Source of the DNA: Ilumatobacteraceae bacterium
GTDB lineage: Bacteria; Actinomycetota; Acidimicrobiia; Acidimicrobiales; Ilumatobacteraceae
Direction of reading: 5' to 3'
Length of the DNA stretch: 64,000 bases
Assembly (NCBI GenBank): GCA_963801795.1
Contig: CAWDFZ010000005.1
Coordinates: 484,664-548,663 of the forward strand
Both the position numbers and the translations under genes were made by a program. Of the stretch, positions 2,008 through 21,204 are shown one piece after another. Position 1 is the first letter of the stretch. The number at the start of each line of letters is the position of its first letter. Under the pieces are notes generated by a model, which saw only the letters and a program-made list of their open reading frames with translations, searched no databases and was not told the DNA's origin.

Positions 2008-2061
2008 CGCTGCGCGACAGATCACCGGATCGACGCACCCCAGCCGGTACCGTCGTCGGCC

Positions 2062-2936
2062 ATGTTCACGGCCCTGCTGCGCGAAGCGCAGGCCCAAGCA
2101 GTGGCTGAAGAACATCCTCGTGTTCGCCGCGCCCGGCGCGGCCGGCGTCCTCGATCAGCGCCACGAGCTGGTCCTCACGATCGTCACGTTCGTGGCGTTC
2201 TGCTTCGCCGCGAGCGGCATCTACTTCTGGAACGACCTGCTCGACGTCGACGCCGACCGGGTCCACCCGACCAAGCGCTTCCGGCCGATCGCGTCCGGCG
2301 AACTGACGCATCACCGCGGCCCGGGTCGCGGGCGTCGTGCTGCCACTGATCGGTCTCGGCTTGAGCGCGCTCACCGGACGGTGGCAGACCGTCGCCGTCG
2401 TCGCCCTCTACATCGTGACCACGCTGCTCTACACCGTCTGGTTGAAGCACGTCGCCGTGATCGACATCGTCACGATCGCCTCCGGGCTTCGTGCTGCGGG
2501 CCGCCGCGGGTGCCGTGGCCGTCGACGTGCCGATGTCGCGATGGTTCGTCCTGTGCATCACGTTCGGCTCGCTGTTCATCGTCATCGGCAAGCGCTACGC
2601 CGAGCTGATCGAGCTCGGCGAGGGCGCCGGCACCCGCGGCGACGCTCGAGGTGTACGACATCGGCTACCTGCGCATCCTGCTCGCGGTCAGCCTCGGCGG
2701 CGCCCTGCTCAGCTACTGCGTCTGGGCGTTCGAGACCGCCGCTGCTGTCGACCTCGGACCTGCCGCTGTACGAGTTGTCGATCGTGCCGATGTTGATCGC
2801 CCTGTTCCGCTATCTGCTGGTGCTCGAAACCGGTGACGGCGCAGCACCCGAGGAGGTCTTCTCCTCCGACCGGGTGCTGCAGCTCGCCGGGCTGTGCTGG
2901 CTCGTCGTCTATGGAGCTGCCGTCTATGTCTCATGA
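2062..2936 (+). CDS. Decaprenyl-phosphate phosphoribosyltransferase (UbiA family, Rv3806c-like DPPR synthase), frame-disrupted
   Basis: RPKQWLKNILVFAAP and NDLLDVDADRVHPTKRFRPIASG (NDxxDxxxD), with many TM segments. Pieces are 2062..2349, 1886..2608, 2337..2936, 2491..2796 and 2651..2836. Removing one base near 2091 restores ...LLREARPKQWLKN. The start is uncertain (ATG 2062, or GTG 2004 overlapping the HAD stop). Confidence 0.85.
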
Positions 2937-2987
2937 ACCGTCTCCGGCGACAACCGACCCTCGGGCGACCGTCCCGATCTGCCGGCG

Positions 2988-3718
2988 GTGATGACGCTCG
3001 TCGCCGACGTCGAGGGCTGGATGAGCCCCGGCCAGGCGGCGACGCTGTACGACTCGGCCACCCGCTGTCCCACCGGGCGGATCGATCGTCGAGATCGGCA
3101 GCTTCCGTGGCCGGTCGACGATCGTGCTGGCGTCGGCGGCCGCGCCCGACGTCGAGGTGATCGCCATCGACCCCCACGCCGGCAACGACCGGGGCCCGCA
3201 GGAGATCGACGGGTACGCCGCCGAGGCCGCCGACGACCACCAGGTGTTCCTCGCCAACCTGGAACGCGGCCGGCGTCGCCGATCGGGTGCAGCACCTGCG
3301 GATGTTCTCCGACGACGCCCTGACGTCGATCGTGCGACCCGATCGACGTGCTGTACATCGACGGCGCCCACCGGTACGCACCGGCGCTCGCCGACATCCG
3401 CAACTACGGGATCCGGGTGACCGACGGCGGCACGATGCTCATCCACGACTCGTTCTCGTCGATCGGCGTCACGCTGGCCATCGTGCGGGCGCTGGTGTTC
3501 GGCTCGACGTTCCGGTACGTCGGGCGATCGCGATCGATGACGATCTACCGGGCCGACCTGCGCCGCGTCGGGCACCGGGCGCGCCCGCAACGCCGCGCGC
3601 CAGCTCGCCCAGCTGCCGTGGTTCGCCCGCAACGTGGCGTTGAAGGTGCTCCTGACGCTCGGCGCTCGGCAAGGTGCTCGGTCGTCTCGGCCGGCCCGTG
3701 CCCGAGTGGCCGTACTGA
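2988..3718 (+). CDS. Class I SAM-dependent methyltransferase (Methyltransf_24-like), frame-disrupted
   Basis: LVADVEGWMSPGQAATLYD, VEIGSFRGRSTIVLA (Gly-rich SAM loop, read by hand), DVLYIDGAHRY and LIHDSF. Pieces are 2988..3323, 3124..3420, 3287..3643 and 3348..5153. The end is ...GRPVPEWPY* with TGA at 3716-3718. An earlier ATG at 2933 overlaps the upstream stop (ATGA) and may be the true start. Confidence 0.7.
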
Positions 3719-3767
3719 TTCGGTGGCCGTACGATTCGTCGACACGATCTGTAGCCTCGGGAGCCCT

Positions 3768-5139
3768 GTGAAGTCCGAACGCACCGCACTCGCCGGTTGG
3801 GGCGGCACCGCGCCCAGCGTGGCGACGGTGATCGACGTCCGCCCCGACGAGCTGGACGACGCCGGGGCGCTGCTGTCACAGATCGGTCCCCGCGGCGCCA
3901 TCGCTCGCGGCCTCGGGCGTTCGTACGGCGACCCGGCGCAGAACGGCGGCGGCACGGTGATCCGCCTCCAGCCGGGCGACGATCCGATCCGGCTCCACGC
4001 CGACACGGGCACGGTCACGGTCGACGCCGGCGTCAGCCTCGACGAGCTGCTGCGGGTGATCATCCCGCAGGGTTGGTTCGTGCCCGTGTCGCCCGGCACG
4101 CGCTTCGTCACCGTCGGCGGCGCGATCGCCAGCGACGTCCACGGCAAGGGCCATCACGTCGACGGCACGTTCGGCGCCCACGTCAGCGAGATCGAGATGC
4201 TGCTGGCCGACGGGAGCATGCGGACGATCACGCCGGCGTCCGATCCCGATCTGTGGTGGGCGACGATCGGCGGGATGGGCCTCACCGGGCTCATCCTGCG
4301 GGCCACGTTCGACCTGATCCCGATCGAGACCCAGCACATCCTGGTCGTCAACGAGCGGGTGCCGAACTTCGACTCGCTGCTCGAACGGATGGTCGCCGAG
4401 CGATCACCTCTACCGCTACTCGGTCGCGTGGATCGACCTGATCGCCACCGGGTCAGCAGCTCGGCCGGGCGGTGCTCGGCGCGGGGCAACCACGCCACGC
4501 TCACCGACCTGCGCGAGCACCACCCGCGTTCGGCGGCCGACCCGCTCGGCTTCGATCCGCCCGTGTTCCCCGACGTGCCACCCGGCGTGCCGAACGTGCT
4601 CAACCGGCACGCGGTCCGCGGCGTTCAACGAGGTCTGGTACCGCAAGACCCCGAAGATGCATCGCGGCACCGAGACGCTCACCGGCTTCTTCCACCCGCT
4701 CGACATGGTCGGGCGGTGGAACCGGCTGTACGGCCGGCACGGCTTCCTGCAGTACCAGTTCGTCGTGCCGTTCGAGGCGGTCGAGACGCTGCGCACCATC
4801 GTGGCCAAGGTGGCCGCCGGCGGCGATGCCGGATTCGTCAACGTGCTCAAGCGCTTCGGCGCCGAGAGCGGCGGCATGCTCAGTTTCCCCCAGCCGGGCT
4901 GGACGCTCACCGTCGACTTCCCGGCGGCGCCCGGGCGGCTGGCCGGCCTCCTCGACGAACTCGACCGGCTCGTGCTCGACGCCGGTGGGCGGCACTATCT
5001 CGCCAAGGACGCCACGGCCGGCCCGTCGATCATCCGCGCCGGTTATCCACGACTCGACGAGTGGAAGGCGGTTCGCGCGCGCGTCGATCCCGACGGCCGT
5101 TGGGCGAGCGACCAGGCGCGCCGACTCGACCTCTTATGA
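3768..5139 (+). CDS. dprE1: Decaprenylphosphoryl-beta-D-ribose oxidase (FAD, VAO-type), frame-disrupted
   Basis: GTG 3768 lies 5 nt after GGGAG. Motifs are LAGWGG, ARGLGRSYGD, TVGGAIASDVHGKGHH, FFHPLDMVGRWNRLYG and HYLAKD. The gene is read from the internal part of 3348..5153, a short double shift near 4390-4480, then 4657..5139. Confidence 0.9.
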
Positions 5140-5193
5140 CCGCGAAGCTCTGACCGCGAAGATCTGTACGCGAACCGACACGACAGGACCAAC

Positions 5194-5942
5194 GTGAACA
5201 ACGCCATCCAACAGCCCCAGACCATCCTCGTGCTCGGGGGCGGCAGCGACATCGCCCAGGCGATCGTGCACGAACTCGCTTCGCCCGCGCTACGGACCGT
5301 GATCCTCGCCGGCCGTCACACGCCGATCGAGCTGACGACGCCGCTCGATGATGCCGTCTCGGTCGTCTCCGTCGAGTTCGACGCCCTCGATCACGCCGGC
5401 CACGACGCGCTCGTGCGATCGATCGCCGACGAGCACGGCGACCTCGACGTGGTGATCCAGGCGTTCGGACAACTCGGTGACGACTCGGTGAACGACGACC
5501 CGGTGGCCGCCGCGGCGCTCGCCGAGGTCAACTACGTCGGCGCGGTCAGCTCGGGTCTGGCCGTCGCCGCGCCAACTCCGCACGCAGGGCCACGGGACGC
5601 TCGTCGTGCTGTCGAGCGTGGCGGGCGTCCGCACCCGCGCCTCGAACTTCGTCTACGGCTCGACCAAGGCCGCCCAGGACGCGTTCGCGACCGGCCTCGG
5701 CCACGCGCTGCACGGATCGGGCGCCAAGGTGCTCGTGGTGCGGCCCGGGCTTCATCCGCTCGAAGATGACCACCGGTGTCGCCGAGGCCCCGTTCGCCGC
5801 CGACGTCGACGTGGTCGCCGCCGCCGTGGCCAAGGGCCTGCGCAAGGGGAGCTCGGTCGTGTGGGCGCCGTCGATCCTGCAGGCGGTGTTCGGCATCCTC
5901 CGCTTCGCGCCGGCCCCGATCTGGCGCAGACTCGATCGCTAG
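5194..5942 (+). CDS. dprE2: Decaprenylphospho-2'-keto-ribose reductase (SDR), frame-disrupted
   Basis: It lies immediately after dprE1. Motifs are ILVLGGGSDIAQA (Rossmann) and SSVAGVRTRASNFVYGSTKAAQD (Ser...YxxxK). Pieces are 5194..5769 and 5606..5956, then ...ILRFAPAPIWRRLDR* with TAG at 5940-5942. Confidence 0.85.
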
Positions 5943-5974: not shown

Positions 5975-8104
5975 ATGACGGTCGAACGGCAGCCGGCGCT
6001 CGACGGCGTGCGCGCCTTGGCGCTCGTGCTGGTGCTGTTCTTCCACGCCGGCTACTCGTGGATGCCGGCCGGGTACATGGGCGTCTCGGTGTTCTTCACC
6101 CTGTCCGGGTACCTGATCACCAACCTGCTGCTCACCGAGTTCGACGCGTCGAACGGGATCCGGCTCGGCACGTTCTACTCGCGGCGCTGGAAGCGGCTGC
6201 TCCCGGCCGGTTTGCTGTGCCTCGTCGGCATCGTGCTGCTGCGGTTCGCCGGTGCGTTCCGCGAGGTGCAACACCTGCGCGGCGACCTGACCGCGGCGAC
6301 GTTGCAGTTCTTCAACTGGACCGAGCTGTCGCGCGGAACGAGCTACGCCGACCTCTTCACCGCCTCGGCCGAGCAGCTGTCGCCCGTCAAGCACTACTGG
6401 TCGCTGGCGATCGAGGAGCAGTTCTACCTGCTGTGGCCCGTGGTCCTGTTGCTGCTCGCCCGTCACGCTCGCCGTCGGAACGTTTCGGTGCTCTGGCCGG
6501 TCGCCGCGCTCACCGCCGTGTTCGTCATCGCCGCGCCCGTCATCGGTCGGCTGTTCGGCCCGGATGCCGCGTACTGGGCGACGCCGGCCCGCTTCGGGGA
6601 GATCCTCGTGGGGGCCACGCTGGCCTGCGTGCTGCGTTCGCCATGGGCGTCCCGCCGTGCGCCGTCGGCACGTGTGGGGACGGCGCTCGCGGTCGGCTCG
6701 CTGGCGGTCATCGTGGCGTCGGCCGTGGTCCTGCCCTCCGACGGCGGCCCCGCGTTCGACGGTTGGCTCGGCCTCTTCGCGCTCGCCTCCGCCGGTCTGA
6801 TCGTCGGCCTGCAGGCACCCGGCCCGGTGCGTCGCGTGCTGTCGTGGCGCCCGCTCGTGCTGCTCGGACTGGTGAGCTACGGCGCCTACCTCTTCCACTG
6901 GCCGGTGTTCGTCCTGTTGTCGACTCGCGGTTGGTCGTTGTCGAACTCGCCGTCGTTCGTCGTCGCCGTGGCGATCACCCTGGGGTTGGCGGCGGTGTCG
7001 TACCGACTCGTCGAACACCCGATCCGGCTGCGGTCGTGGAGCCCCGGCCGCGTCGGTGGGGCCGCGATCGCGGCGAGCATCGCGACGCTCGTGGCCGTGT
7101 TGGTGGCACCGCCGTCGTCGGGTGGATTTCTCGTGGCCGACGAGGGTCTGCTCGATTCGGCCGCCATCCAGCCCGTCGCGCCATTCACCGAACTCGAACC
7201 GGTCACCGAACTCGAACCGGTCACGAACTCGCCGCCCGCCCACCTCGACGACCCTTCCCGCGGTCCCGACCCCGATCGCCGTCGCGGGCCGATCGCCCGG
7301 CCAGGGCGGCCCGGCCGTCGCCAGTGAGACCACGGGCCCGGCCACGACCTTGCACGACCGACGACCGTCCCGCCGACGAGTGGGCCGCTGGTCCCGCCCG
7401 CGTCCGTTCCGCTCCCGCTGACGCCGAACCGTCCGGTCCGGATCCTGGTCGTCGGCGACTCGACGGCGTTCTACGTCGGGCACGGTCTGGCACGTTGGGC
7501 CGTCGAGCATCCGGACCTGGCGCAGGTCGACCTGCTCTGGAGCCAGGGTTTCGGTCTCCTCACCGCCGGCACGGTCACGGCGTGGGACGGCACACAGTTC
7601 GCGCAGCGCTCGATCGAGGTGCTCGACGAGGACCTACCGGCCCAGATCGATCGCCTGCAGCCCGACGTGGTCGTGCTGATGACCACGATCGACGATGTCC
7701 TCGACCGCGTCTGGGATGACGCCGAGGGTGAGCTCTCCACGGAGGACGAGCGGTTCCAGACGCGCTTGCACCAGGCGTACCGCGATGCCACCGCGTCGAT
7801 CGTCGAGCAGGGTGTGCCGTCGGTCGTCTGGATCGTGCCTCCCGTGCCGGTCAGTTCCAGCACCGCGGTGGAACTGAACGACCCTGCGACGTTCGAGGCC
7901 CAGCACGAGGTCATCCGCCGCGTCGTGGAGGAATTCGCCCCGGCGACTTCGGCGGTCGAGCTCGACCGTTGGATGGTCGAGGGCGGCCACGCCACCGACG
8001 CGTCGTGGCGCCCTGACGGCACGCACCTCACCGAGGAGTCGGCAGCACTCATCGCCGAGCTGATGCTCGGCCCGACGCTGGTGAACACCGCCGTCGGCGC
8101 CTGA
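5975..8104 (+). CDS. Acyltransferase-3 (OafA/YrhL-like) membrane protein fused to a C-terminal SGNH/GDSL hydrolase domain
   Basis: The AT3 part is 5975..7327 (LDGVRALALVLVLFFH, SVFFTLSGYLIT, YGAYLFHWPV). A low-complexity linker follows with at least 1 frame change at ~7327-7420. The SGNH domain is in the frame of 7619..8104 (ILVVGDSTAFYVGH, WRPDGTHLTEE). The total of ~710 aa fits this architecture. Confidence 0.8.
7186..7221 (+). repeat. Perfect 18-bp tandem duplication inside the acyltransferase linker (encodes TELEPV x2)
   Basis: caccgaactcgaaccggt occurs twice in tandem, followed by a partial third unit, cacgaactcg. Confidence 0.85.
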
Positions 8105-8114: not shown

Positions 8115-8150
8115 CCTGACCCCGCTTGATCGGTCAGTCAGCGGGGCAGG
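8115..8150. terminator. Hairpin between convergent genes (candidate bidirectional terminator)
   Basis: ccccgct (8120-8126) pairs with agcgggg (8140-8146), flanked by cctg/cagg. It lies between the stop at 8102-8104 (+) and the stop at 8138-8140 (-). There is no clear U-tract. Confidence 0.35.
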
Positions 8151-9863
8151 TCTTCGGGATCGACGTACAGCGGGTACTTGCCGGGGACGTCGGCCGGGCT
8201 CACGCCACCGCCGCCCTCGCACCGCTGGTACAGCAGGACGAGGTTCTCGTCGTACTGTTCCACGAGGCAGAAGTTGTCGGCGACCGCCTGGTTCGCCTCC
8301 TCGGAACGGTGGACCGCCGACGTGTTCGGTTCGATCCAGCCCGTCCAGAAGTTGGTCAGCACGAGGCAGTCGGCCGACTCGATGTCCTCGGCCAGCCCCG
8401 AGCCCGCGGTGTCGGCCAGGCCCGGATCCATCTCGATGAAGTAGGTGCGCCGGCACCAGTTCGGGGAACAGGTAGTAGAGGGCGACGTCGCTGTAGATCG
8501 TGCGGCTCAGATCGGCCGGGCCGACGACGATGCGGTCGCCCGGCTCGCTCAGCTCGTCGAGGTCGACGATCAGATCGTTGAGCGCCGCGGCGACGGTCGA
8601 GTGCGAACCAGAACCGGCGACCGTCACGTTCGACCTAGGAACGGCAGCGGCACGTCGCCGAACGAGACCCGGGTGTGCAGCAGGTAGTTGCGGTAGGTGA
8701 AGAACGGGGCGACCACGAACATCAGCACGCTCACGGCCACGACGCCGGCGACCTGGGCGACCCGTACCCGGCCCGGCCAGTGGCGCATCGTGATCTCGGT
8801 GATCGCCACGGCGAGCAGCGGCCACGAGACGACGGCCACCCAGGCCAGGTGCGTCGAGTCGGGTCGTTGGAGCGCCTGGGGCAGGATGCCGAGGCCGAGG
8901 AGCCCGGCCGACAGGAGGACGAACGTGCGCGGGGTCGAGTTGCCCCGGCGGCGCTGCCACCAGGCGACGAGCGGCACCGCGATGGCGATGATCACGACGG
9001 CGAAGAACCAGAGGAACAGCTGCTTGGACGCGTTCGAGCGCCGGGAAGCGCCACCACGGCGGCAGGCCTTCGGCGACCGCCTGCAGTGCGCCGTCGATCA
9101 TGTTCCACGACGGTGGTCGGGGGAGTTCGCGGCCGGCGCGGAGGCGGAACACCGGGTCGAGGAAGATCCCCTCGAACACGTTCCACGGCCCGGCGATCGA
9201 CGAGATGGACCCACATCGGGATCAGCCCGACGGCCGCTCCGATCAGCAGCGGCTTCCAGCGCCGCCGCCGATGGACCCAGACGGCGAAGAGGAGCGCGAG
9301 CGCCGATCGCCAGCACGATGTCGGGCCGGAACGTCAGGGCGATGCCGGCGAGCAGCCCGGCGATCACCCAGTTCGACGTCCGTCCGGTGCAGACGGCTCG
9401 CACGGCGAACACGATCGACCACAGGGCGAGCGCGAGCGCACCGTGCCAGGCCAGCGCCGACAGGCCGATCGGGGTCATGATCAGCACGGCCGTGATCCAC
9501 GCCGCGCCGACCGCCGCGACACGACCCCAGGCCCGCGTCAGCGCGTACATCGCCGAAGATGATCCCGAGGTGCTGGAGCAGGCCGAAGGTCCGTTCGGCC
9601 TCGAGCGTGTACCCGAAGACCCAGTACCAGAGGGCGAGCAGGTCGAGCGAGCCGGGCCCGTACAGGTGCAGGAAGTCGACGTTGGGGATCTTGCCCTGCT
9701 GCACCAGGCGGGGGAAGACGAGCATGAAGCCCTCTTCCATCGACGACCCGGTCGTCTGGAACAGGCCCTTCACGGGCAGGGCCACGACCGCCAGCACGGC
9801 GAGCGACGGCGAGCCCGCCGCGCCACGACCACCGCAACCGGCCACCGAGCACGAACGGCCCAT
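8138..9863 (-). CDS. Polytopic membrane protein, GT-C-like glycosyltransferase candidate, frame-disrupted
   Basis: Chained minus-strand pieces are 9243..9956, 9098..9550, 8049..9179, 8624..8995 and 8138..8431. There are many TM helices (LAVLAVVALPV, AAWITAVLIMTPIGLSALAW, LLSAGLLGLGILP) and a soluble C-terminus, ...NFCLVEQYDENLVLLYQRCEGGGG. I recognise no specific family. The start is uncertain (ATG 9863 or 9956). Confidence 0.55.
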
Positions 9864-9975
9864 CGGGAACGACGGTCGACGTCGACGTCGGATTGTTCGA
9901 GCAGGTCGGTCAAGCCCCGAGATGGTATCCAGCTCGACGCCGCCGATCCCGGCCACACGGCCTATCGTCGTGGCG

Positions 9976-11146
9976 ATGTCGGGACGCGGACCTGCAGTGG
10001 TACGTCGACGACCTCGTCGGCTCGGGCGTCCGGCGGGTCCACGTGCTCGCCTGGCGCGACCTCGACGATCCCGACGCCGGCGGGTCCGAGGTGCACGCCG
10101 ACGAGTTCATGCGCCGCTGGGCCGCCGCCGGGCTGGAGATCACGCACCGCACGTCGGCGGCGATCGGCCAACCGGCCACCGCACGACGCAACGGCTACGA
10201 CGTGGTCCGCCGCGGGAGCCGCTACACCGTGTTCCCGCGGGCCGATCGCCGGCGAGATCGACGCGGACGATGGGTCGCTACGACGCCATCGTCGAGATCT
10301 GGAACGGCGTCCCGTGGTTCTCGCCGGTGTGGCGCCGCACGCCGGGGATCACGTTCCTCCACCACGTCCACGGCCCGATGTGGGACCAGATCCTGCCCGG
10401 GCCCACTGGCCTCGTTCGGGCGGGCGCTCGAGGCCCGGCTGGCGCCGCCGTTCTACCGCCGCGGCCTGACGGTGACCCCGTCCGACGCCACCCGGGACGA
10501 GCTGCTCGAACTCGGCTTCCACCCCGATCGGGTCACGGCGATCCCCAACGGCACCGACCCGATGTTCAGCCCGGGCGGGCAGCAAGACGGCGAACCCGTC
10601 GATCGTCGCGGTCGGGCGCCTCGCACCCGTGAAGCGCTTCGAGCTGCTGATCGACTCGGCCGTCACCGCCCGCCGCACGCGTGCCCGGGCTCACGCTGAC
10701 GATCGTCGGGGAGGGGCCCGAACGCGACGCGCTGCGTCGACCTGGTCGACGCGGCGCGACGCCGGCGACTGGGTCCGCTTCGCCGGACGGGTCGACCACG
10801 CCGACCTCGTCGATCTCTACCGGCGCGCCTGGATCGTGGCCAGCGGCTCGCTCGCCGAGGGCTGGGGCCTGAGTCTCACGGAGGGTGCCGGCTGCGGAAC
10901 GCCGGCCGTGGCCACCGACATCCGCGGCCACCGCAGCAGCGTCGTCGACGGCGTCACCGGCATCCTCGCGCGCGCCCGACCGAGCTCGGCGACGCGAACT
11001 GGCCCGTGTCCTGCTCGACGACGCACTCGCGCCTGCGCCTCGGCCAGGCGGCGCTCGAACGGGCCCGCACGCTCACCTGGGACGCCTCGGCGCTCGGGAT
11101 CATCGAGGTCCTGCACCGCGGCGACGTGACCGGTCGGCTGACATGA
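9976..11146 (+). CDS. GT4-family glycosyltransferase, frame-disrupted
   Basis: VHVLAWRDLDDPDAGGSEVHA, PDRVTAIPNGTD, LTIVGEGPERDAL and EGWGLSLTEGAGCGTPAVATD (the GT4 E-x7-E region). Pieces are 9893..10699, 9559..10632, 10629..11129 and 10885..11763. The end is ...HRGDVTGRLT* with TGA at 11144-11146. The start is uncertain (ATG 9976 requires a shift). Confidence 0.8.
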
Positions 11147-11184
11147 CGGTCCGATGGCAACCGCCAGTAGGGTGTCGCACCGAT

Positions 11185-11920
11185 ATGCGCAGCGTGATCG
11201 TCCTGCCGACGTACAACGAAGGGGAGAACATCGAACCCTTCCTGCGCGCCGTCCGCAAGGCGGCACCGACCACCGACGTGCTCGTCGTCGACGACAACAG
11301 CCCCGACGGCACGGGCCGGATCGCGGAGACGATCGGCGCCGAACTCGACCGGATCGACGTGCTGCACCGTGCCGCCAAGCACGGTCTCGGCAGTGCCTAC
11401 CGGGACGGGTTCGCCCAGGTGCTCGACGGATCCGTACGACGTGGTCATCTCGATGGATGCCGACTTCTCGCACGACCCCGAGCAGCTGAGCGAGTTCATC
11501 CGGCTGGTCGCCGACGGTGCCGACGTGGTGATCGGCTCGCGCTACATCACCGGCGGCGGAACCACCGACTGGCCGGTCCACCGCCAGCTGCTGTCGAAGT
11601 GGGGCAACACCTACACCCGGGCGATCCTCGGTGTCGGTGCCCGCGACTGCACGAGCGGCTACCGGGCCTACCGGGCGACCTCGCTGGCCGCCATCGATCC
11701 CACCTCGACGTCGGCCGAGGGATACGCGTTCCTCACCGAACTCGTCCGCCGGCTCACCCGTGACGGCGCGACGGTGGTCGAGACGCCGATCATCTTCCGC
11801 GACCGGACCCGGGGCAAGTCGAAGATGTCGGGCCGCATCATCGTCGAGTCGATGATGCTCGTGACCGCGTGGGGCCTCCTCGACCGGTGGCGCCGGTTGA
11901 GCGGTCGCTTCCGCCGGTGA
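11185..11920 (+). CDS. Polyprenol-monophosphomannose synthase-like GT2 (Ppm1/DPM1 family)
   Basis: VIVLPTYNEGENI, VLVVDDNSPDGT, ISMDADFSHDP, VIGSRY and RDRTRGKSKMS. It is read from 10885..11763 (starting at ATG 11185) and then 11369..11920, with one frame change near 11430. Confidence 0.85.
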
Positions 11921-13841
11921 TGACCGACAGCGCATCGGCCGACACTGCGCCGGCGCGACCGCACCGGCGAGACTGGCCGACCGACGGTGCCGCACCGGGT
12001 CGACGGCGTCCGCCTGGCGCACGTCGCCCTGGATCACGATCGTGGTCGTCACGATCGCCGTCGCGCTGCCGCTGATCGTCGCCGTCGCCACCCTCTCCGG
12101 CCGGCGGTGGTTCCCGGTGCTCGACCTGGCGATGACCGAGTTCCGGGTGCGCGACGTCGGCGGGCGGCACACGCCGCTGATCGGGCTGCCCGGGCCGGAT
12201 CGGGACGTTCCCGGAACAGGGCAGCCACCCCGGCCCGATCAGCTTCTGGCTCGTCGCGCCCGGCTACCGGCTGTTCGGCAGCTCGGCGTGGGCGATGGAG
12301 GCCGCGACGGTGATGATCCAGATGGCCTGGATCGCGCGTGGCGCTGTGGATCGGTCACCGCCGGGCCCAACTGGCCGGCGTGCTGGTCGTGGCGGCGGTG
12401 ATCGCGGTGCTGCTGCCGCGGCTACGGGCTGGTGGTGCTGATCCAGCCGTGGAACCCGTACCTGCCGCTGATCGCCTGGATCGTCGTGCTGCTCGCCGCC
12501 TGGTCGGTGGTGTGCGGCGACCACATGATGCTCGTCCCGCTCGTCGTGGCCGCGTCGTTCGCCGCCCAGACCCACATCCCGTACCTGCTGATGGCCGGCG
12601 GCCTTGGTCTGTTCGCCGTCGCCGTCGTGCTCGTCCGCTGCTGGCGCAGCGACGATCGCCGGGCGTTCGTGCGGCCCCTGGCCTGGACCGGCGGTCTGTT
12701 CGCGGTGCTCTGGTTGGCGCCGTTGGTCGAGCAGATCCGTCACGATCCGGGCAACCTCCGCCAGCTGATCGACCACTTCACGTCGCCGACCGAGGACGTG
12801 ATCGGCTGGCGCATGGGCGGCAACGTCCTGCTGCGCCACCTCGATTTCGTCGACGGCTACCTCCGGCTGCTCACCGGCACCGATCGCTTCCTCCAGGTCG
12901 GCTTCGAACCCGACGGTCGCATCTGGCCGGGGGTGCTGCTGCTCGTCGCCTGGATCGCCTCGGTCGTCGTCGCAGTCCGGATGCGGCATCGCTCGCTGAT
13001 CGCGCTCGACACGGTGATCGGGGTGACGCTGCTGCTGTCGTTGGTGTCGATGGCCCGCATCTTCGGCATCGTCTGGTACTACCTCACGCTCTGGGCCTGG
13101 GGCACGACGACGCTCCTGATCGTCGCCATCGTGTGGACGGCGGCCACCTCGTGCATCGGTGCCTGGCACCGACGCACGACCTTGACCGTGCGGCGGGTGG
13201 CGATCGTCGGGTCGCTGGCGCTCGGTGGGTTGGTGATCGTGTCGATGGTGATCGTGGCACCGGGCACGGACCATCCGGAGGAGCGCCTCGGCGCGACGGT
13301 GGGCGCACTGCTGCCGGCGACGATCGAGGCCCTCGACGCCGGAGTCGGCGCCGCCGACGGTCGCGACGGCCGCTACGTCGTGCAGTGGAACGACGCCTAC
13401 TTCTTCGGGAGTCAGGGCTTCGGCCTCGTCAACGAACTCGAGCGCGCCGGCTTCGACGTCGGGATGTACGAGCCGTGGCACGTCCCGGTCACCTCGCACC
13501 GCGTGATCCCCGCCGGGCAGGCGACCGCCGAGGTCGTGATGGTCACGGGCGGGTTCGTCGACCAATGGCGTGGCCGACGACCGCGTGGTCGAGGTCGCCT
13601 CGTTCGACCCGCGTACCGACGCCGAGCGCGAGCAGTTCACGGCGCTGCGCGACGGATCTGATCGCCGATCTCGAAGCGAACGGTCTCGACGACCTCGTGC
13701 CGATCGTCGACACGAACCTGTTCGGGGTGCGCGTCGATCCCGCGGCTCTCGGAACGAGCTCGCGAGGATGCCGCCCGCCTGCTGCTCCTCGGTCAGGAGA
13801 CCGCTGTGTTCATCGGCCCGCCCGGGGTGGCGACGCCGTGA
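11920..13841 (+). CDS. Large polytopic membrane protein with a C-terminal soluble domain (paralogue 1), GT-C candidate, frame-disrupted
   Basis: ATG 11920 overlaps the Ppm stop (TGATG). Pieces are 11869..12075, 12042..12401, a hand-read stretch (SHPGPISFWLVAPGYRLFG), 12432..13661, 13570..15288 and 12338..14587. The end is ...ETAVFIGPPGVATP* with TGA at 13839-13841. It is homologous to the next gene. Confidence 0.65.
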
Positions 13842-15670
13842 CCACCGAGATGAGTGGGATCGTGGCACCGGCGGATACGTCGGCGTCCTCGGACGTGTCG
13901 ATCGACGATCGCGTGCGCCGGTGGGGATGGAAGGTCCTCGCGGCAGCGACCAGCTTCGTGATCCTGCTCTCGGCGGTCCGCGGCATCCGCCGCGGCTACG
14001 AGGCGATCGGCGACAACGCCCTGATCGAGATGCGCGGACGCGACGTGCTCACCGGCAACCATCCGCTGCTCGGCACCTGGTCGTCGGCCTCGATCAGCTC
14101 GAGCGTCGACGTCAACCATCCCGGACCGCTGCTGTTCGACGTCGTCGCACTCCCCGTGCGCCTGTTCGGTGGGGCGGTGGGCATCGCCCTCGCCATCGCC
14201 GCCCTCAACATCGCCGTCGTCTGGGCGGTCGGGTTCGTCACGGCGCGCACCGGCGGGCCGACCGCAGCGATCATCGCCCAGGTCATCACCGCCGGCCTCG
14301 TCTGGACGCTCGGGAGCGAGCTGCTCTACGACCCCTGGCAGCCGAACGTGCTGGTGCTGCCCTTCTGGCTCCTGATGTGCACCGTGTGGGCGGTGATCGA
14401 CGACGACGTCGTCCTGCTGCCGTTGGCGGTCGCCGTCGGCTCGTTCTGCATGCAGACCCACCTCGGCTATCTGTTCCTCGTGCCGATCCTGCTCGCGTTC
14501 GCGCTCGTCGTGGTCGTCCTGCGACGTCGGCGGCGGCGGTCCCGGACGGTTCCGCGACCTGCGGGCACCCGTTGCGGAACTCAGTGATCGTCGGTCTCGT
14601 GCTCTGGGCCCAGCCGCTGTGGGAGCAGTTCTTCAGCGCCGGCCAGGGCAACCTCGGCCGCCTGCTCACGGCCGGCACCGGCGGCTCGGAGGCGGCAGCG
14701 GAGAAGAGCACCACCGGCCTGTCCGTCGGCGTGCGACTGTTCAGCTCGGTCGTCGCCCAGGCCCCATGGTGGCTGCGCCCGGGCTTCGACACGTCGGTGC
14801 CGAGTTCGACGTGGATCGAGACGCCCGACGGGCGCGTGCTGTCGGCGCCCGATCTGGCCGGGCACGGGCGTCGCGCTCGTGGCACTGGTGCTGTTCGTCG
14901 CGGTGGTGGCGCTCGGTTGGGTGGCGGCCCGGCGCAGCGGACACGTCGCCATCGAGCGCGGGTACTGGCTCCTCGCGCTGTGCAGTGGCGTCGCCATGGT
15001 CACGTTGATCATCACGCCGATCGACGTGCTCGGACTGACGCCGCACAAGATCCGCTACCTGTGGATCATCGGGGCGTTCGCCACGTACCTGTTGGTGCTG
15101 TCGCTCCTGTGCGTGCTGCGCGCCGACGCGCGCCGCGGGGCGGTCGCCGGGCTCGCCGTGGTGGGTCTGGTCGCCGCGGTCGCCACGATCCCGGTCCACG
15201 CCAACGCCGCCGGACCGGTGTACTTCAGCGCCACGTACGACTCGATCGCCGACATCCGGTCGCAGGTGTCCGACTACTTCGCCCGTGACCCGCTCGCTCC
15301 GTCGGAGGTCCGGTTCGACGCCGGTGGGCTCGGGTTCGCCGAGCCGTACACGGCGCCGGTGATGGCGGAGTTGGCGGAGAGCGGGGTCGATCTCGTGGTC
15401 GACGACGTGCCGCTCAGCCGCCAGCTGGGCCCGCGGCGTCTCGCCACCGAGGAGGACAGCACGAACCGGCCCGTCGTGTTCGTCCGCGCCGGCGCCGAGG
15501 CGCTCGAGGAGCTCCCGGGCGTCCGGCGCATCGCCTTCCACGACGGCGACCGCACCCCGTTCACGCTGAACGACGTGACCGATCGGGCCGTCGGCGTGTT
15601 CATCAGCGACAACGGCATCGTGCCCGATCCGCTCGCCATCGGGGATGTTCCGGTCGAGGACGGGTCGTGA
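13838..15670 (+). CDS. Large polytopic membrane protein with a C-terminal soluble domain (paralogue 2), GT-C candidate, frame-disrupted
   Basis: GTG 13838 overlaps the upstream stop (GTGA). Pieces are the tail of 12338..14587, then 13570..15288 and 14879..15670. Shared blocks with paralogue 1 are NHPGPLLFDVVALPVRLFG vs SHPGPISFWLVAPGYRLFG, and LYDPWQPNVLVLPFW...SFCMQTHLGYL vs LIQPWNPYLPLIAW...SFAAQTHIPYL. Confidence 0.65.
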
Positions 15671-16809
15671 GCACGGCCAACGACACGCGCGTCGACATCG
15701 TGGTGCCCGTGTACAACGAGGAGGCGATCCTCGAGTCGAGCATCTGCCGACTACGTGAGCACCTGATCACGGGGTTCCCGTTCCGGTGGCGGATCGTCAT
15801 CGCCGACAACGCATCGACCGACGGCACCGCGGCGATCGCCACCAAGCTCTCGGGGACCGACGACCGGATCGTCCACCTGCACCTCGATCAGAAGGGTCGT
15901 GGGCGGGCACTCCGGGCGGCGTGGTCGAGTTCCGATGCCGACGTGGTCGCATACACCGACGTCGACCTGTCGACCGGCCTCACCGGCCTGCTCCCACTCG
16001 TGGCACCACTGGTGTCGGGACACTCCGACCTCGCCATCGGGTCGCGTCTCAGCTCGAGTTCGGTCGTCGCCCGTGGCCCGAAGCGCGAGCTGATCTCCCG
16101 GTGCTACAACCAGCTCCTGCGGCTGGTGTTCGCCGTGCGGTTCCGCGACGCGCAATGCGGGTTCAAGGCGGGCCGTGCCGACGTCGTGCAGCTGCTCCTG
16201 CCCGCCGTCGAGGACGAAGCCTGGTTCTTCGACACCGAACTGCTGCTGCTCGCCGAATACAACGGGCTGCGCGTCCACGAGGTGCCCGTCGACTGGATCG
16301 ACGATCCCGACAGCCGGGTCGACGTGCGCTCGACGGCGATGGCCGACCTCCGCGGCGTGCGGCGCATGGCGTGGCGCTTCTTCCGGGGCCGCGCCTCGGT
16401 CGACCTCGGCGAGCACGAACGAAAGCCCTTGGCCGACGACTTCGGCCGCCAAACGGTCACCTACGCCAGCATCGGCCTCGTCTCGACCGCGATCAGCCTC
16501 GTGATCTTCCTGCTGCTGCGCGACCAGATCGGCGCCGTCTGGGCGAACGTGGTCGGGTTCACCGCCACGGCGATCGGCAACAACTGGGCCAACCGGCGCT
16601 GGACGTTCCACCGGCGCAGCGACGAGGATCGCCGATGGCGGATGGTCACGACGTTCACCGTGTTCGCGATCTCGCTGCTCGTCACCTCGCTGGCACTGGC
16701 CGCCGTCGACGGCAACCCCACCGCCGAACTCGTCGTGCTGGCCATCACGTGGACGGCCGCGGCGATCTTCCGCTTTGTAGTGTTGCGGCAATGGGTGTAC
16801 CGCCGATGA
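15667..16809 (+). CDS. Bifunctional GT2 (polyprenyl-phosphate glycosyltransferase-like) / GtrA-family fusion protein
   Basis: This is an intact 380-aa ORF. GTG 15667 overlaps the upstream stop (GTGA). The GT2 part has IVVPVYNEE, IADNASTDGT, YTDVDLS and AQCGFK. The C-terminal ~120 aa carry 4 TM helices, typical of GtrA (LVSTAISLVIFLLL..., NNWANRRWTF). Confidence 0.85.
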   Translation: MSTANDTRVDIVVPVYNEEAILESSICRLREHLITGFPFRWRIVIADNASTDGTAAIATKLSGTDDRIVHLHLDQKGRGRALRAAWSSSDADVVAYTDVDLSTGLTGLLPLVAPLVSGHSDLAIGSRLSSSSVVARGPKRELISRCYNQLLRLVFAVRFRDAQCGFKAGRADVVQLLLPAVEDEAWFFDTELLLLAEYNGLRVHEVPVDWIDDPDSRVDVRSTAMADLRGVRRMAWRFFRGRASVDLGEHERKPLADDFGRQTVTYASIGLVSTAISLVIFLLLRDQIGAVWANVVGFTATAIGNNWANRRWTFHRRSDEDRRWRMVTTFTVFAISLLVTSLALAAVDGNPTAELVVLAITWTAAAIFRFVVLRQWVYRR

Positions 16810-18347
16810 GCTCGACGGGCGCGGCGGCCGGGAGCGGCGCGAAGGTCGGAGTCCTCGTCGTCGCCTACAACGCCGAGACGACGCTGCGGTGGGTGCTCGA
16901 CCGCATCCCGTCGCCGCTGCGCAGCGAACTGGTCGAAGTGCTCGTGATGGACGACCACTCGGGCGATGCGACGTTCGACGTCGCCCAGGACTACATCGCC
17001 GACGGCACCGACATCCCGCTCACGATCGTGCGGCACGAGGCCAACCTCGGCTACGGCGGGAATCAGAAGGCCGGGTACCGCTACGCCATCGACCACGGCT
17101 GGGACATCGTGGTCCTCCTCCACGGCGACGGCCAGTACGCGCCGGAGAAGATGCCCGACCTGCTGGCGCCGTTCGCCGACGATCGCGTCGACGCCGTGTT
17201 CGGCTCGCGCATGCTCGACCCGGGCGGGGCCCGCCGCGGTGGGATGCCCTGTACAAGTACGTCGGCAACCGGATCCTCACCCGCACCCAGAACGTGATCG
17301 CCGGGGTCCGCCTGAGCGAGTGGCACTCGGGTTATCGCGCCTATCGGGTGTCGGCGCTGGCCGACCTGCCGTTCGTCGGCAACAGCGACGGGTTCGACTT
17401 CGACACCGAGATCATCCTGCAGCTGCTCGGTTCGCACCGCCGGATCGTCGAGGTCCCGATCCCGACGTACTACGGCGACGAGATCTCGCGGGTGAACGGG
17501 ATCGCCTACGCCCGCGACATCGTCCTCGACACGGTCCGCCACCGCCTCGGGGAGGTCGGCTTCGGCCGCGGCGACCTCGGGCGCAAGGACGAGCCCTACG
17601 CGTACAAGCCGTCGCCCGACAGTTCGCACGGCATCGTCCTCGAACTCGTTCCCGACGACGCGCCGCTGCGGGTGCTCGACGTCGGGCTGCGGACCCGGCT
17701 GGGTGGCCGCCGAACTGCGCCGCCGCGGCCATCACGTCACGGGGGTCGACCTGATCGCCGACGAGGGCGTCACCGAGCGGACCGACCGCTTCTTCGAGGC
17801 CGACCTCGAGCAGGGTCTCCCCGACGCGGTCGGCGGCGGGTTCGACGTGGTGATCGCCGCCGACGTGATCGAACATGTCCGCAATCCGGACGAGCTGCTC
17901 GCCGACCTCGCCGGCCGGACGTCACGGACCGGGATGATCATCGCCAGCGTTCCGAACTTCGGCCACTGGTACCCGCGGGCACGGACGGCGGCCGGACTGT
18001 TCGACTACGACCAGCGCGGCATCCTCGACCGGACCCACGTGCGCTTCTTCACCCGGCGCAGCTTCCGGCGGGCGGTGGCCAACACCGGCCTGGTCACCAC
18101 CGCCGAGGAGTACGCCGGGCTGCCGCTCGACGTGCTCGGGGTGGAGGGCGCCGCGGGCACGTTCGTCGCGTTCGTCGATCGCGTGCTGCGCACCGTGTGG
18201 CCGACGATGTTCGCCTACCAGTTCGTCGTGAAGCTGGAGACGGCACCGGCGCTGCTCGAGCCCGTCGTGACGTCGCGTGACGGCGGCCGTACGTCGACGC
18301 GGCCGAGCAGCGCCGCGGCTTGTCGACCGCTGCGGTCGTCAACGTGA
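16806..18347 (+). CDS. GT2 glycosyltransferase fused to a class I SAM methyltransferase domain, frame-disrupted
   Basis: ATG 16806 overlaps the upstream stop (ATGA). The GT2 part has VLVVAYNAE, VMDDHSGD, LLHGDGQY and SGYRAY. The MTase part has LRVLDVG.., DVVIAADVIEHV and IIASVPNFGHWY. Pieces are the tail of 15786..17297, 16889..18280 and 17703..18347. The exact 3' end is uncertain (18280-18347). Confidence 0.75.
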
Positions 18348-20195
18348 TCACGGTCGTGGCCGTGTTGCTGTTCTGGCTCGTGTCGACGTCGTGGCAGCCG
18401 TGGAACCTCCTCGCCCGAGCCGGTTTCAGCGCCGACTTCTACGACGAGCAGGCGAGGGTGTTCCTCCGGGGCCGGCTCGCCGTCGACCCGCGGTTCCGGG
18501 GCCGGAGGGTTTCCTGATCGACGGCGGGACGTACCTGTACTACGGCCCGTTCCTGTCGTTGGTGCGGATGCCGTTCCAGCTGTTCGGCGACTTGTTCACC
18601 TCGCGCCTCGTGCGGCTGTCGATGCTCGTCGCCGTCGTCGTGCTGTGTCGCTGGTCGGCCCGCCTCGCCCGCGCCGCCCAGCGCACGTTCGGTTCGTTCC
18701 GGACCCGTCCCCAGACGAACCGAGCGGACGGGAAGCCGGTCGACGAGCGATGGGTCGTGGGCTTGTTCACGGCGGCCGTGGTGTTCTCGCCGGCGATCTT
18801 CGCCGCCGGGTGGATCAGCGTCTACAACGAGACCGAGCTCTGGGCGTTCACGCTGGCCATCGTGTCGGCCACGCTCGTATCGTGGAGTGGGCCGCCTCGC
18901 AGTTCACGTCGATCCGCCTGCTGATCGGTGCGATCGCTGCCGCGCTCGGCGGCGACATTGACCACGCGCCCCGATCGGGCTCGGCATGGCGTTCGCCATC
19001 GGCGTGTGTGGACTGGTGCTCGCCTGGCGGAACCGGACCGATCGCCGACCTGGCGGCACCCGTACGGCGATCCTGGCGATCGTCGGGGGACTGCTGCCAC
19101 TGGTCGCCCACGCGGCGGTGAACTTCGCCAAGTTCGGCACGCTCTTCTCGGTGCCCGGCGGTCGCCAGGTGCTCTCGTTGCAGGACCCGTCGCGGGCCGA
19201 CTGGTTCGCCGGGAACAACGACAGCTTCTTCTCGCCGCGGTTCCTGACCACCACCGTCGTGCAGTACCTGCGACCGGACGCGATCCGCTTCGAGCGGCTC
19301 GTACCCGGCATCCGGTTCGGCCCGGTCGCGCCGAACCGGGCGTCGTATCCGTTGCTCGGCAACACCCCCTCGTCGTCGCTGACACTCACGGCCACGCTGC
19401 TGTTGATCCTCGCCGTCGTCGGCGCTGTCTGGATCGTCCGCCGGCGAGCGCTCACGTGGGGGTTGGTCGTCGTGTGCACCGCTCGGCGGCGCGCTCCCGA
19501 CGTTCCTCATCGGCTTCCTCGCCCAGCGGTACCTGATCGACATGCTGCCGCCGCTCGCCGTCGCCGGATCGATCGGCGCGTGGGCGATCGGGACGTGGGC
19601 GGTGGGGCGATCGTCGGCTCGTTGGATCGCCGCCGGCGGCGTCGTGCTGGTCGTGTGGGGCGCCTGGGCGAATCTCTCGCTCGCCACGTGGACGCTCGAC
19701 CAGAAGTCACCGGGGTTCACCGAGCTGCGTTATCGGGTCGACGACGCCGTCTTCTCCGGCCCATCACCCGGCCTGATCTCGATCGAACCCGGCTCGCCGG
19801 TGGCCCGTGATGGCATGACGGCGGTCGAGATCGACCCGGATGCGGGCTGCACGGGTGTCTACACCGCCGAACAGGGTGTCTGGGTCGCCGTCGAGCGGGG
19901 ATCCGCACGTCAGGTGACCCAGACCGTGACCGCCGACCGGGTTCCGACCCCGCTCGCCGCCGGCGACGGGTGGGCCGTCGACCTCGACCTGTCCGACCCG
20001 GCCATCGCGCACGTCATCGTCACCGATGGGAGCGGTGCGGTGATCAGCGATCAGCCGGTGCCGAACTGGACCCCGCTCGAGGAGGACGAAGAACGCGACG
20101 TCACCGTGATCGTCGACCCGGTCACCAACACCTCGACGATCACCATCGACACGCGGCGACGCCGGCGACGAGGCCATGCTGTTCCTCCCCGGTGA
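18320..20195 (+). CDS. Polytopic membrane protein, GT-C-like glycosyltransferase candidate, frame-disrupted
   Basis: Pieces are 18320..18517, 18277..18924, 18645..19121, 18986..19810 and 19542..20195. Blocks include FYDEQARVFLRGRLAV, FLIDGGTYLYYGPFLSLVRMPF and many TM helices, with a soluble C-terminal region. Both ends are uncertain (start 18277-18320, end 20195-20281). Confidence 0.55.
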
Positions 20196-20282
20196 GCTCC
20201 TCGACCGCCGGTCCGCTCCGCTCCACCGCCGACTCGAACGGCGAGAGCCCCCTCTGCCGGCAGCTCCTCGACCGCCTCTGAC

Positions 20283-20334
20283 CCGAAAAATGCCGCGAAT
20301 CGTTCGCTCAGCGAGCGATTCGCGGCATTTTCGG
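20283..20334. terminator. 52-nt near-perfect palindrome (copy A of an interspersed element); candidate bidirectional intrinsic terminator
   Basis: ccgaaaaatgccgcgaatcg (20283-20302) pairs with cgattcgcggcattttcgg (20316-20334), with one bulge. The GC stem gccgcgaatcg/cgattcgcggc is followed by a U-run on both strands. It lies between convergent genes, and a related copy sits at 50945-50999. Confidence 0.6.
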
Positions 20335-20355
20335 GGATTTCGGGGATTTCGGGGC
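20329..20355. repeat. Three tandem 9-bp units (tttcgggga x2 plus tttcggggc)
   Basis: Read directly. The units extend the right arm of the palindrome up to 2 nt before the stop codon (20358-20360) of the ABC ATPase gene. Confidence 0.8.
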
Positions 20356-20357
20356 GG

Positions 20358-21204
20358 TCAGAGGATCTGGGAGAGGAAGCGCTTGGTGCGTTCCTCCTGG
20401 GGGTTGGTGAAGAAGTGTTCGGGCGTGCCGACCTCGACGATCTGGCCGGCCTCCATGAACACGACACGGTCGGCGACCTCGCGGGCGAAGCCCATCTCGT
20501 GGGTGACGACGACCATCGTCATGCCGCCGACGGCGAGGTCCTTCATCGTGTCGAGCACCTCGTTGATCATCTCCGGGTCGAGCGCCGACGTCGGTTCGTC
20601 GAACAGCATCACCTTCGGGTCGCATCGCCAACGCGCGGGCGATCGCCACCCGCTGTTGCTGGCCGCCCGACAGCTGACCCGGATACTTGCGGGCCTGCTC
20701 GGGGATCTTCACCTGGGCGAGCATCTCCATCCCGAGCTCCTCGGCCTTCGCCTTCGGCAGCTTGCGCACCTTGCGCGGGGCGAGGGTGATGTTGTCGAGC
20801 ACGCTGAGGTGCGGGAACAGGTTGAAGCTCTGGAACACCATGCCGGTCTCGCGGCGGATCTCGGCGATGTTGCGGATGTCGTTCGACAGCTCGGTGCCGT
20901 CGACCACGATGCGCCCCGCGTCGTGCTCCTCGAGCCGGTTGACGCAGCGGATCATCGTCGACTTGCCCGACCCCGACGGCCCGATCACCACGACCACCTC
21001 GGTCGTCGCCACCTTGAGGTTGATGTCCTTCAGGGCCTGGAAGTCGCCGAAGAACTTGTCGACGTGTTCGAGTTCGATCATCGGCGCGCCGTCGCCCGAC
21101 ATCGCCGTCGCATCGCTGAACACGGTGCCGGTCTGCTCGTCGCTCATGCCAATGTCGTCGCTCATCTCGTCCCCACTCATCTGGCCCCACTCACCCTGTC
21201 CCAC
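20358..21204 (-). CDS. Polar amino-acid ABC transporter ATP-binding protein (GlnQ/AapP-like), one frame change
   Basis: Walker [10 protein letters not shown], signature [15 protein letters not shown], Walker [12 protein letters not shown] and H-loop VVVTHEMGF. Pieces are 20308..21204 and 20358..20612. Several in-frame ATGs lie between 21204 and 21090, so the start is uncertain. Confidence 0.9.

Follow-up and report, generated by a model that had tools for sequence, protein, structure and literature searches.

The 64,000-nucleotide (nt) window analysed here, positions 484,664 to 548,663 of contig CAWDFZ010000005.1 (assembly GCA_963801795.1), derives from an uncultured Ilumatobacter-like actinobacterium. 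It contains seven co-directional genes (G1-G7, forward strand, 9976-20281; Table 1) that encode putative synthases of lipid-linked sugar donors alongside membrane glycosyltransferases (GTs) that may use those donors. An initial annotation, drawn from the sequence alone, had proposed a seven-gene glycan assembly operon here, and Pfam searches of frame-corrected translations confirmed both its gene count and its domain content. Single-base insertions and deletions (indels) interrupt most genes of the window, and reading it by open reading frames (ORFs) requires frame correction; the protein-level results below refer to frame-corrected translations of the window genes, or to their orthologues. 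The closest public relatives are two loci that we designate L001, from an Ilumatobacteraceae metagenome-assembled genome, and L081.

Table 1 Features of the seven-gene operon and its surroundings, in window positions (SAM, S-adenosylmethionine; TM, transmembrane segment; DPMS, dolichol-phosphate-mannose synthase; DPA, polyprenyl-phosphate-arabinofuranose).
Feature	Position	Strand	Description
HAD phosphatase-like gene	~1437-2003	+	Upstream of the UbiA-type gene
UbiA-type polyprenyl-phosphate phosphoribosyltransferase	2084-2927	+	L081 orthologue matches NF008978 (score 331, cut-off 207)
Methyltransf_24 gene	2926-3732	+	Within the DPA gene group (2060..5942)
DprE1	3768-5139	+	L081 orthologue matches the NCBIfam equivalog (score 559, cut-off 500)
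DprE2	5194-5942	+	L081 orthologue matches the NCBIfam equivalog (score 267, cut-off 250)
Acyl_transf_3 + SGNH membrane acyltransferase	5975..8104	+	L081 orthologue: Acyl_transf_3 86.8 bits, SGNH 30.7 bits; window copy 79% identical
M0	8138..9956	-	Divergent polytopic protein, 603-aa class; ~9 hydrophobic segments
G1	9976..11146	+	Cytoplasmic GT4 glycosyltransferase; Pfam Glycos_transf_1 66.5 bits, Glyco_transf_4 58.7 bits
G2	11185..11920	+	Soluble GT2, Ppm1/DPMS-like putative polyprenyl-phosphate hexose synthase; Pfam Glycos_transf_2 107.9 bits
G3	11920..13841	+	Predicted GT-C fold membrane glycosyltransferase, unnamed family
G4	13838..15670	+	Full-length paralogue of G3 (GT-C by homology)
G5	15667..16809	+	GT2 (GtrB/DPMS/ArnC-like)-GtrA 4-TM fusion; Glycos_transf_2 81 bits, GtrA_DPMS_TM 49.2 bits
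G6	16806..18270	+	GT2 (DPMS-like)-class I SAM methyltransferase fusion; Glycos_transf_2 71.7 bits, Methyltransf_23 63.1 bits
G7	18267..20281	+	Predicted GT-C fold membrane glycosyltransferase, second unnamed family, C-terminal beta-sandwich domain
GC-rich long hairpin	20276..20345	.	Between convergent G7 and ABC-transporter ATPase gene; probable terminator
AftD-family GT-C	within 24925-31857	-	PF11847 94.5 bits and a weak CBM_AftD match

The operon is tightly packed. A 38-nt spacer separates the G1 stop codon (11144-11146) from the G2 ATG at 11185, and the next four junctions are stop/start overlaps, all of them read directly from the sequence at the positions initially annotated: the G2 TGA (11918-11920) overlaps the G3 ATG at 11920 (TGATG, 11918-11922), the G3 TGA (13839-13841) the G4 GTG at 13838 (GTGA), the G4 TGA (15668-15670) the G5 GTG at 15667 (GTGA), and the G5 TGA (16807-16809) the G6 ATG at 16806 (ATGA). 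The last junction had been left unresolved near 18280-18347. It reads CCCGTCGTGACG in the window, and the motif is identical in L001 and in a further locus, L082, where CGTCGTGACG forms a GTGA overlap that one extra upstream base masks in the window. With that base discounted, the G6/G7 junction is most likely a fifth overlap, again GTGA, at 18267-18270, and read in this way it gives the operon five consecutive overlapping junctions. These overlaps recur in relatives (4 nt at G3/G4 in seven of eight loci and at G4/G5 in four of four, GTGA at G6/G7 in the 11 closest loci). High-GC operons often contain stop/start overlaps of 1 and 4 nt, and those seen here indicate tight packing and probable translational coupling rather than any special stoichiometric device; the "stoichiometric assembly line" of the initial annotation goes beyond what overlapping codons show.

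The last ~30 codons of G7 are spread over two other frames of the window and were recovered by their match to the orthologue C-terminus, which moves the operon end from the annotated 20195 to 20281. The long hairpin at this point (RNA fold -50 kcal/mol, z = -8.0; none of 200 shuffles was as stable) is probably a bidirectional terminator that marks the 3' end of the operon. Directly after it, within 20276-20360, stand three tandem copies of GGGGATTTC. Within the operon itself, terminator-like sites are not in excess (three found, 2.1 expected from shuffles), and a scan of the operon for sigma-70-like promoters, which is uninformative for this phylum, found no site. We infer that G1-G7 are co-transcribed as a single operon.

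Three of the seven proteins carry GT2 domains. G2 is closest among solved structures to the P. furiosus DPMS (5mlz, E 1.9e-33) and then to ArnC; G5 matches DPMS (5mlz, E 3.3e-9) and ArnC as well, and its residues 266-377 match PF04138 (GtrA_DPMS_TM) well above the cut-off of 26.1 bits. Residues 1-208 of G6 also match 5mlz (E 1.2e-11), and its methyltransferase part matches 3cc8 (E 2.3e-17). Neither G2 nor G6 has a TM segment. Because DPMS is the best solved relative of all three GT2 domains, G2, G5 and G6 may be regarded as three putative lipid-donor synthases encoded alongside three GT-C proteins. The initial annotation had named two types of polyprenyl-phosphate-sugar synthase, one Ppm1-like (G2) and one GtrB-like and fused to GtrA (G5); both assignments held, though the total becomes three with the addition of G6. 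The NCBIfam models matched by the GT2 proteins (AglJ, dolichyl-phosphate-hexose transferase, PpgS and ArnC) all scored far under their equivalog cut-offs, which rules out orthology to PpgS, AglJ or ArnC; for PpgS (NF058614, cut-off 370 bits), G2, G5 and G6 scored 54.3, 31.5 and 51.2 bits. G1, which begins with the same residues (MSGRDLQWY) as its L081 orthologue, could be placed no more specifically than as a generic GT4, since all NCBIfam GT4 matches were far under their cut-offs.

The initial annotation recognised no named family in the three polytopic proteins, and our searches agree. Neither Pfam nor NCBIfam gave a family above threshold for G3, G4 and G7 of the window or for the orthologues P0001 (88% identical to G3) and P0125 (86% identical to G7); the window proteins missed the Pfam gathering thresholds for PMT/PMT_2, GT87, STT3, GT-C_AftD and PTPS_related, and a PDB search with G3- and G7-family sequence profiles returned no meaningful match. 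Weak matches within the families point toward GT-C enzymes: 10 of 42 G3-family members match PF10131 (PTPS_related, a GT-C clan family; best E 4.5e-6) and three of the 42 match PMT_2, while the G7 family has a single match to GT87 (E 0.37). Homologues of G3 number more than 1,400, nearly all from Ilumatobacter or other Acidimicrobiia, with one labelled "ArnT family glycosyltransferase" at NCBI. Those of G7, for which 1,585 representatives were found at E ≤ 1e-10 among 1.84 billion proteins, are all labelled "hypothetical".

Predicted structures were more informative. AlphaFold (AF2) models were examined for the orthologues P0001 (mean confidence, pLDDT, 86.5) and P0125 (pLDDT 89), which stand in for the window proteins. 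In Foldseek comparisons against the PDB, the best match of the G3 orthologue was ArnT (E 4.7e-6, TM-scores 0.46/0.53), with AftA, EmbA/B, AglB, STT3, AftD, ALG12, PglB and also Pmt4 among its further matches, and the G7 orthologue matched PglB (E 4.9e-5) and then ArnT, STT3, AglB, DPY19 and AftA. The top 10-20 matches were GT-C enzymes without exception, with probability 1.0, against at most 0.2 (TM-score ~0.1) for transporters. The models thus support the view that G3 and G7 are glycosyltransferases of the GT-C fold, as the initial annotation had guessed for all three membrane proteins, and the adjacent DPMS/ArnC-like GT2 genes suggest that they use lipid-linked donors. G4 qualifies as a GT-C through its full-length homology to G3, a paralogy that had also been proposed from the sequence and is borne out by BLASTP (31% identity, E 3e-14) and by hhalign of the two families (A1 versus A4; probability 99.9%, E 2e-31, 507 columns). 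The G3 and G7 families are unrelated at the profile level (profile-profile comparison, probability 0.5%), and similarity between G3/G4 and the PMT_2/YkcB GT-Cs is marginal (hhalign, probability 16-30%). With profile comparisons marginal or null, we rejected filing G3, G4 or G7 under any named GT-C family; judged by Pfam and NCBIfam, G3/G4 and G7 constitute two predicted GT-C families without a curated model.

Hydropathy gives 8-10 hydrophobic segments for each of the three proteins (~10 for G4), in agreement with the AF2 helix maps and within the range of roughly 8-13 helices expected of GT-C enzymes. Acidic residues, located relative to the first transmembrane segment (TM1) from the models, are strongly conserved in the loop where the initial annotation would expect the catalytic site of a GT-C, and each family has invariant Asp or Glu after TM1. 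In the G3 family, D76, E81 and D86 lie just after TM1 and are invariant in 42 sequences (motif LDLAMTEFRVRDV); in the G4 family, D54 and D64, the first and last Asp of the motif GDNALIELRGRDV, are invariant; and in the G7 family the motif FSADFYDEQA follows TM1, with D65 and Q67 invariant and D62 and E66 at least 90% conserved. The G7 model ends in a C-terminal beta-sandwich with weak lectin-like matches.

Conservation of the neighbourhood in relatives, which the initial annotation had named as a test, extends across Acidimicrobiia: L001 and L081 retain the full G1-G7 order, and other loci keep portions of it. The strongest linkage is between G6 and G7: among 80 metagenomic loci anchored on G7 homologues (27-78% identity), of which 58 were informative, a G6-type GT2-methyltransferase gene lay no more than 3.5 kb from the G7 homologue in 56. 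G2-G3(-G4) forms a recurring block in relatives, and homologues of G5, with 50-55% identity across Actinomycetota (hosts tested include Streptomyces, Amycolatopsis, Nocardia, Mycolicibacterium and Frankia), adjoined PMT_2+YkcB_C GT-C genes in all nine cases tested. GT-C domains of the G7 family also occur at the C-terminus of ~2,000-aa proteins that start with GT-C_AftD (2,175 and 2,005 aa), and G7-like domains are fused behind Acyl_transf_3 (fusion proteins P0475, P0493 and P0457 of the representative library).

Two variants of this gene order were noted in passing. An Acyl_transf_3 gene lies between the G6 and G7 homologues in L100, L107, L109, L116, L122, L128 and L135. In L088 (4927-8451, reverse strand), and likewise in L089, L090, L092, L095 and L132, an extra module of a methyltransferase, a GtrB-like GT2 and a G4-like GT-C lies in opposite orientation between G4 and G6, where G5 is missing; the lineage seems to swap such donor/GT-C modules in and out.

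The genes around the operon offer further context. Upstream, the UbiA-type gene together with DprE1 and DprE2 makes up, as judged by the equivalog matches of the L081 orthologues, a complete DPA pathway in an Acidimicrobiia genome. The window copies of these genes are frameshifted and 77-97% identical to those of L081, and UbiA/DprE1/DprE2 are still linked to operon genes in more distant relatives. Between this group and G1 lies M0, the orthologue of which has a sub-threshold match to PMT_2 (E 9.6e-5; 23.1 bits, cut-off 26.1) and which is probably a fourth GT-C; profile-profile comparison showed no relation of M0 to the G7 family, and M0, like the other three, was not placed in a named family. 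Because M0 keeps its place beside DprE2 in distant relatives (L004, L008 and L010), it is a candidate arabinofuranosyltransferase. The divergent starts of M0 and G1 are 19 nt apart, which implies that their promoters lie inside the neighbouring coding sequences or that the mRNAs are leaderless. At the left edge of the window (1-1400, forward strand), a frameshifted coding sequence resembling EPSP synthase (aroA) was identified by eye from its translation.

Downstream of the operon, past an amino-acid ABC transporter, lie an AftD-family GT-C, an epimerase, a GMC oxidoreductase and a GT-C-GT2 fusion. The paper that described the AftD structure had already included Ilumatobacter nonamiensis among the organisms with AftD homologues. 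Beside the AftD gene of the window, or continuous with it (frameshifts blur the boundaries), an uninterrupted frame of 1,182 codons from stop to stop encodes an unassigned N-terminal region, an Acyl_transf_3 domain and a trypsin-like protease domain. The fusion, a 651-aa protein (35188-37143, reverse strand), has a GT-C-like membrane domain with weak PMT_2 and GT87 matches, followed at the C-terminus by a Ppm-like GT2 with 47% identity to G2, and so appears to join transferase and donor synthase in a single chain.

Taken together, the gene content makes it fairly probable, in our judgement, that the operon serves to build or decorate a glycan of the cell envelope, on the external side of the membrane, by means of lipid-carried donors, and our best reading of its layout is a concatenation of modules that each comprise a lipid-donor synthase and a GT-C. 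From the domains, predicted folds, acidic loops, paralogy and linkage described above, we infer a scheme of donor formation, flipping and transfer, including the likely sugars and acceptor and a matching of donors to GT-Cs. On the cytoplasmic face, G2, G5 and G6 would each transfer a sugar from its nucleotide-linked form to polyprenyl phosphate, and the SAM methyltransferase domain of G6 probably methylates its own lipid-linked sugar or product. The lipid-linked donors would then be flipped across the membrane, for which the GtrA domain of G5 is the only flippase candidate. Outside, G3, its paralogue G4 and the unrelated G7, with its lectin-like C-terminal domain, would transfer the sugars to an acceptor, the conserved Asp of the first external loop doing the chemistry. 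The GT4 enzyme G1 would act in the cytoplasm, most likely on a lipid or primer acceptor.

The DPA pathway, the fourth GT-C-like gene and the AftD homologue, none of which the initial annotation took into account, are the best clue to the target polymer and, because the operon is linked to them, an arabinose-containing wall polysaccharide or lipoglycan is the most likely one. A broader proposal, which we put forward only tentatively and hold to be possible rather than probable, is that Ilumatobacteraceae, or Acidimicrobiia more widely, make an arabinofuranose wall polysaccharide or lipoglycan in parallel to the Mycobacteriales, with distinct enzymes that include the two unrecognised GT-C families. 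The GT2-methyltransferase/G7 pair would then act as a novel type of two-gene module in which a sugar is methylated on its polyprenyl-phosphate carrier and afterwards transferred outside by a GT-C with a lectin domain. The two uncurated GT-C families and the conserved GT2-methyltransferase/GT-C pair are the most original elements of the locus.

Several observations weigh against the envelope-glycan reading or parts of it. G3, G4 and G7 fall in no curated family, and TM-scores of the models to solved GT-Cs are modest (0.3-0.5). The catalytic residue is assigned by its position rather than by superposition on a solved active site. That G2 and G6, which lack a membrane segment, can reach polyprenyl phosphate is an assumption, and the AftD-G7 fusions could be gene-calling artefacts. 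The pairing of donor synthase and transferase is firm only for G6-G7 and not rigid overall (L002 has no G6, and in some relatives, the L088-type loci, G4 has no G5 next to it); a strict one-to-one scheme of G2-G3, G5-G4 and G6-G7 was kept as a suggestion only. Finally, the window copy is heavily frameshifted, such that all protein work rests on corrected translations or orthologues.

Three other explanations were considered. If the polytopic proteins were not glycosyltransferases at all but, for instance, WaaL/Wzy-type polymerases or ligases, or transporters, the acceptor, whether soluble or lipid, would be a direct substrate of the GT2 enzymes. The modest TM-scores would fit such proteins, as would the sequence profiles without a PDB match and the appearance of WaaL and MFS transporters lower in the Foldseek lists. 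We nevertheless find this very unlikely, given the wide gap in match probability between GT-Cs and transporters, the placement of the conserved acidic residues exactly in the first external loop, the matches of some G3-family members to the GT-C clan families PTPS_related and PMT_2, and the consistent position of these genes beside DPMS-like GT2 genes. Protein O- or N-glycosylation, in which G2 would make polyprenyl-phosphate-mannose and the GT-Cs would glycosylate secreted or membrane proteins (compare Ppm1/Pmt in actinobacteria, and PglB/AglB), has rather more in its favour: G2 is strongly DPMS/Ppm-like, the Foldseek list of G7 is headed by the oligosaccharyltransferases PglB, STT3 and AglB together with DPY19, and G3 also matches Pmt4. 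Yet none of the proteins belongs to the PMT/GT39 or STT3 Pfam families, six glycan enzymes adjoin the DPA pathway, the acyltransferase with Acyl_transf_3 and SGNH domains and the AftD homologue, G7-like domains are fused to AftD, and the C-terminal domain of G7 is lectin-like rather than of a peptide-binding type. We regard protein glycosylation as unlikely, though less so than a set of membrane proteins that are not glycosyltransferases.

The third alternative concerns the state of the sequence itself. The window (G+C ~70%) is broken throughout and on both strands by 1-nt indels, at about one per 400-500 bp: a codon-usage Viterbi tracker divides it into ~170 frame segments, the third-position GC (GC3) signal jumps to another frame at intervals of a few hundred bases, and very few long ORFs are left. 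Within the operon only G5 is an intact ORF (15667-16809), the other six genes having ~24 internal frameshifts (at least five in G1, one in G2, ~six in G3, two in G4, three in G6 and at least seven in G7), and the operon differs from that of L081 by 86 single-base indels. Taken at face value, such numbers would describe a decaying cluster of pseudogenes, non-functional in this organism. However, indel density is equal in aroA, the ABC transporter and DprE1, GC3 remains ~0.9 on either side of each shift, and L081, L002 and contigs from short-read metagenomes have intact orthologues. Moreover, coding DNA that is ~88-89% identical to L001 and L081 is separated from them by more than 100 single-base gaps per 9-16 kb, a pattern that points to consensus errors; the indels fall mostly outside homopolymers, with G or C accounting for most of the extra bases. 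Because the orthologues of relatives are intact and housekeeping genes are equally affected, we read the frameshifts as consensus errors of an unpolished-looking, long-read-type assembly, and we consider real decay of the operon highly improbable.

Soil, freshwater and marine communities contain Acidimicrobiia in abundance, and our searches of the available library for the envelope glycans of this class, for DprE1 in Acidimicrobiia and for the wall sugars of Ilumatobacter returned nothing usable. The locus provides a testable gene set of three putative lipid-donor synthases, four GT-C candidates, a predicted DPA pathway and an AftD homologue; it also defines two GT-C families without a curated model and exposes a very strongly conserved GT2-methyltransferase/GT-C pair. 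In mycobacteria, ethambutol and the benzothiazinones target DPA-dependent arabinan synthesis, and an independent version of it would inform the evolution of the pathway. Homologues in cultured Ilumatobacter (e.g., P0071 of I. nonamiensis) make experiments feasible.

The closest parallels to the operon are three-component systems for periplasmic glycan modification, namely GtrA/GtrB/GtrX, ArnC/ArnEF/ArnT, CsbB/GtcA/YfhO and the pentofuranose systems of Kelly et al. 2024 (PMC11127046). They have in common with it a GT2 or UbiA-type enzyme that attaches a sugar to polyprenyl phosphate, a small presumed flippase of the GtrA or SMR type and extracytoplasmic transfer by a GT-C. As in the Gtr system, GtrB-like and GtrA domains are present (here united in G5) and a GT-C is encoded alongside each putative synthase (G4 by G5, G3 by G2, G7 by G6), in linkages that are conserved. 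Compared by description only, G7 also resembles the pentofuranosyl GT-C ORF12 of family GT136 (PMC11127046) in its ~10-11 transmembrane segments, a helical loop that follows TM1 and a beta-rich domain at the C-terminus, and the separate HAD gene of the window is reminiscent of the phosphoribose-phosphatase domain, likewise of HAD type, in the Citrobacter system described in the same work. The operon differs in that it concatenates three putative donor synthases, three GT-Cs and a GT4, has one synthase fused to a methyltransferase and a single GtrA domain for three putative donors, draws its GT-Cs from no curated family, and belongs to a Gram-positive member of the Acidimicrobiia rather than an O-antigen producer.

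The arabinogalactan and lipomannan/lipoarabinomannan machinery of mycobacteria and corynebacteria (UbiA-DprE1-DprE2, the GtrA protein Rv3789, AftA-D, Emb, Ppm1 and MptA/B) is matched by the DPA equivalogs directly upstream, by the AftD-family GT-C of the window, by the Ppm1-like GT2, the GtrA domain and the PimA/PimB-class-like GT4 of the operon, and by the presence of AftA and Emb among the best structural matches of G3. Unlike that machinery, G3, G4 and G7 fall outside the GT87, GT83, GT39, GT53 and AftD Pfam families, and none of the operon genes was recognised as a homologue of Emb, AftA, AftB or AftC. The PpgS (Rv3631)/Rv3632/Rv3779 galactosamine system of M. tuberculosis likewise combines a GT2 polyprenyl-phosphate-sugar synthase, a GtrA-like protein and a GT-C, and G5 resembles a fusion of the first two, but the scores of G2, G5 and G6 against the PpgS model (31-54 versus 370 bits) are not those of orthologues. 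The likeness to these two systems noted in the initial annotation therefore holds for their logic and not as orthology. By such comparisons, the operon is not orthologous to any of the Gtr, Arn, CsbB/YfhO, PpgS/Rv3779 or pentofuranose systems. The actinobacterial pairs of a GT2-GtrA protein and a PMT_2/YkcB_C GT-C (compare B. subtilis YkcC/YkcB) share with it a G5-type protein, 50-55% identical, that is encoded beside a large GT-C; here, however, that neighbour is G4, whose profile similarity to PMT_2/YkcB is marginal.

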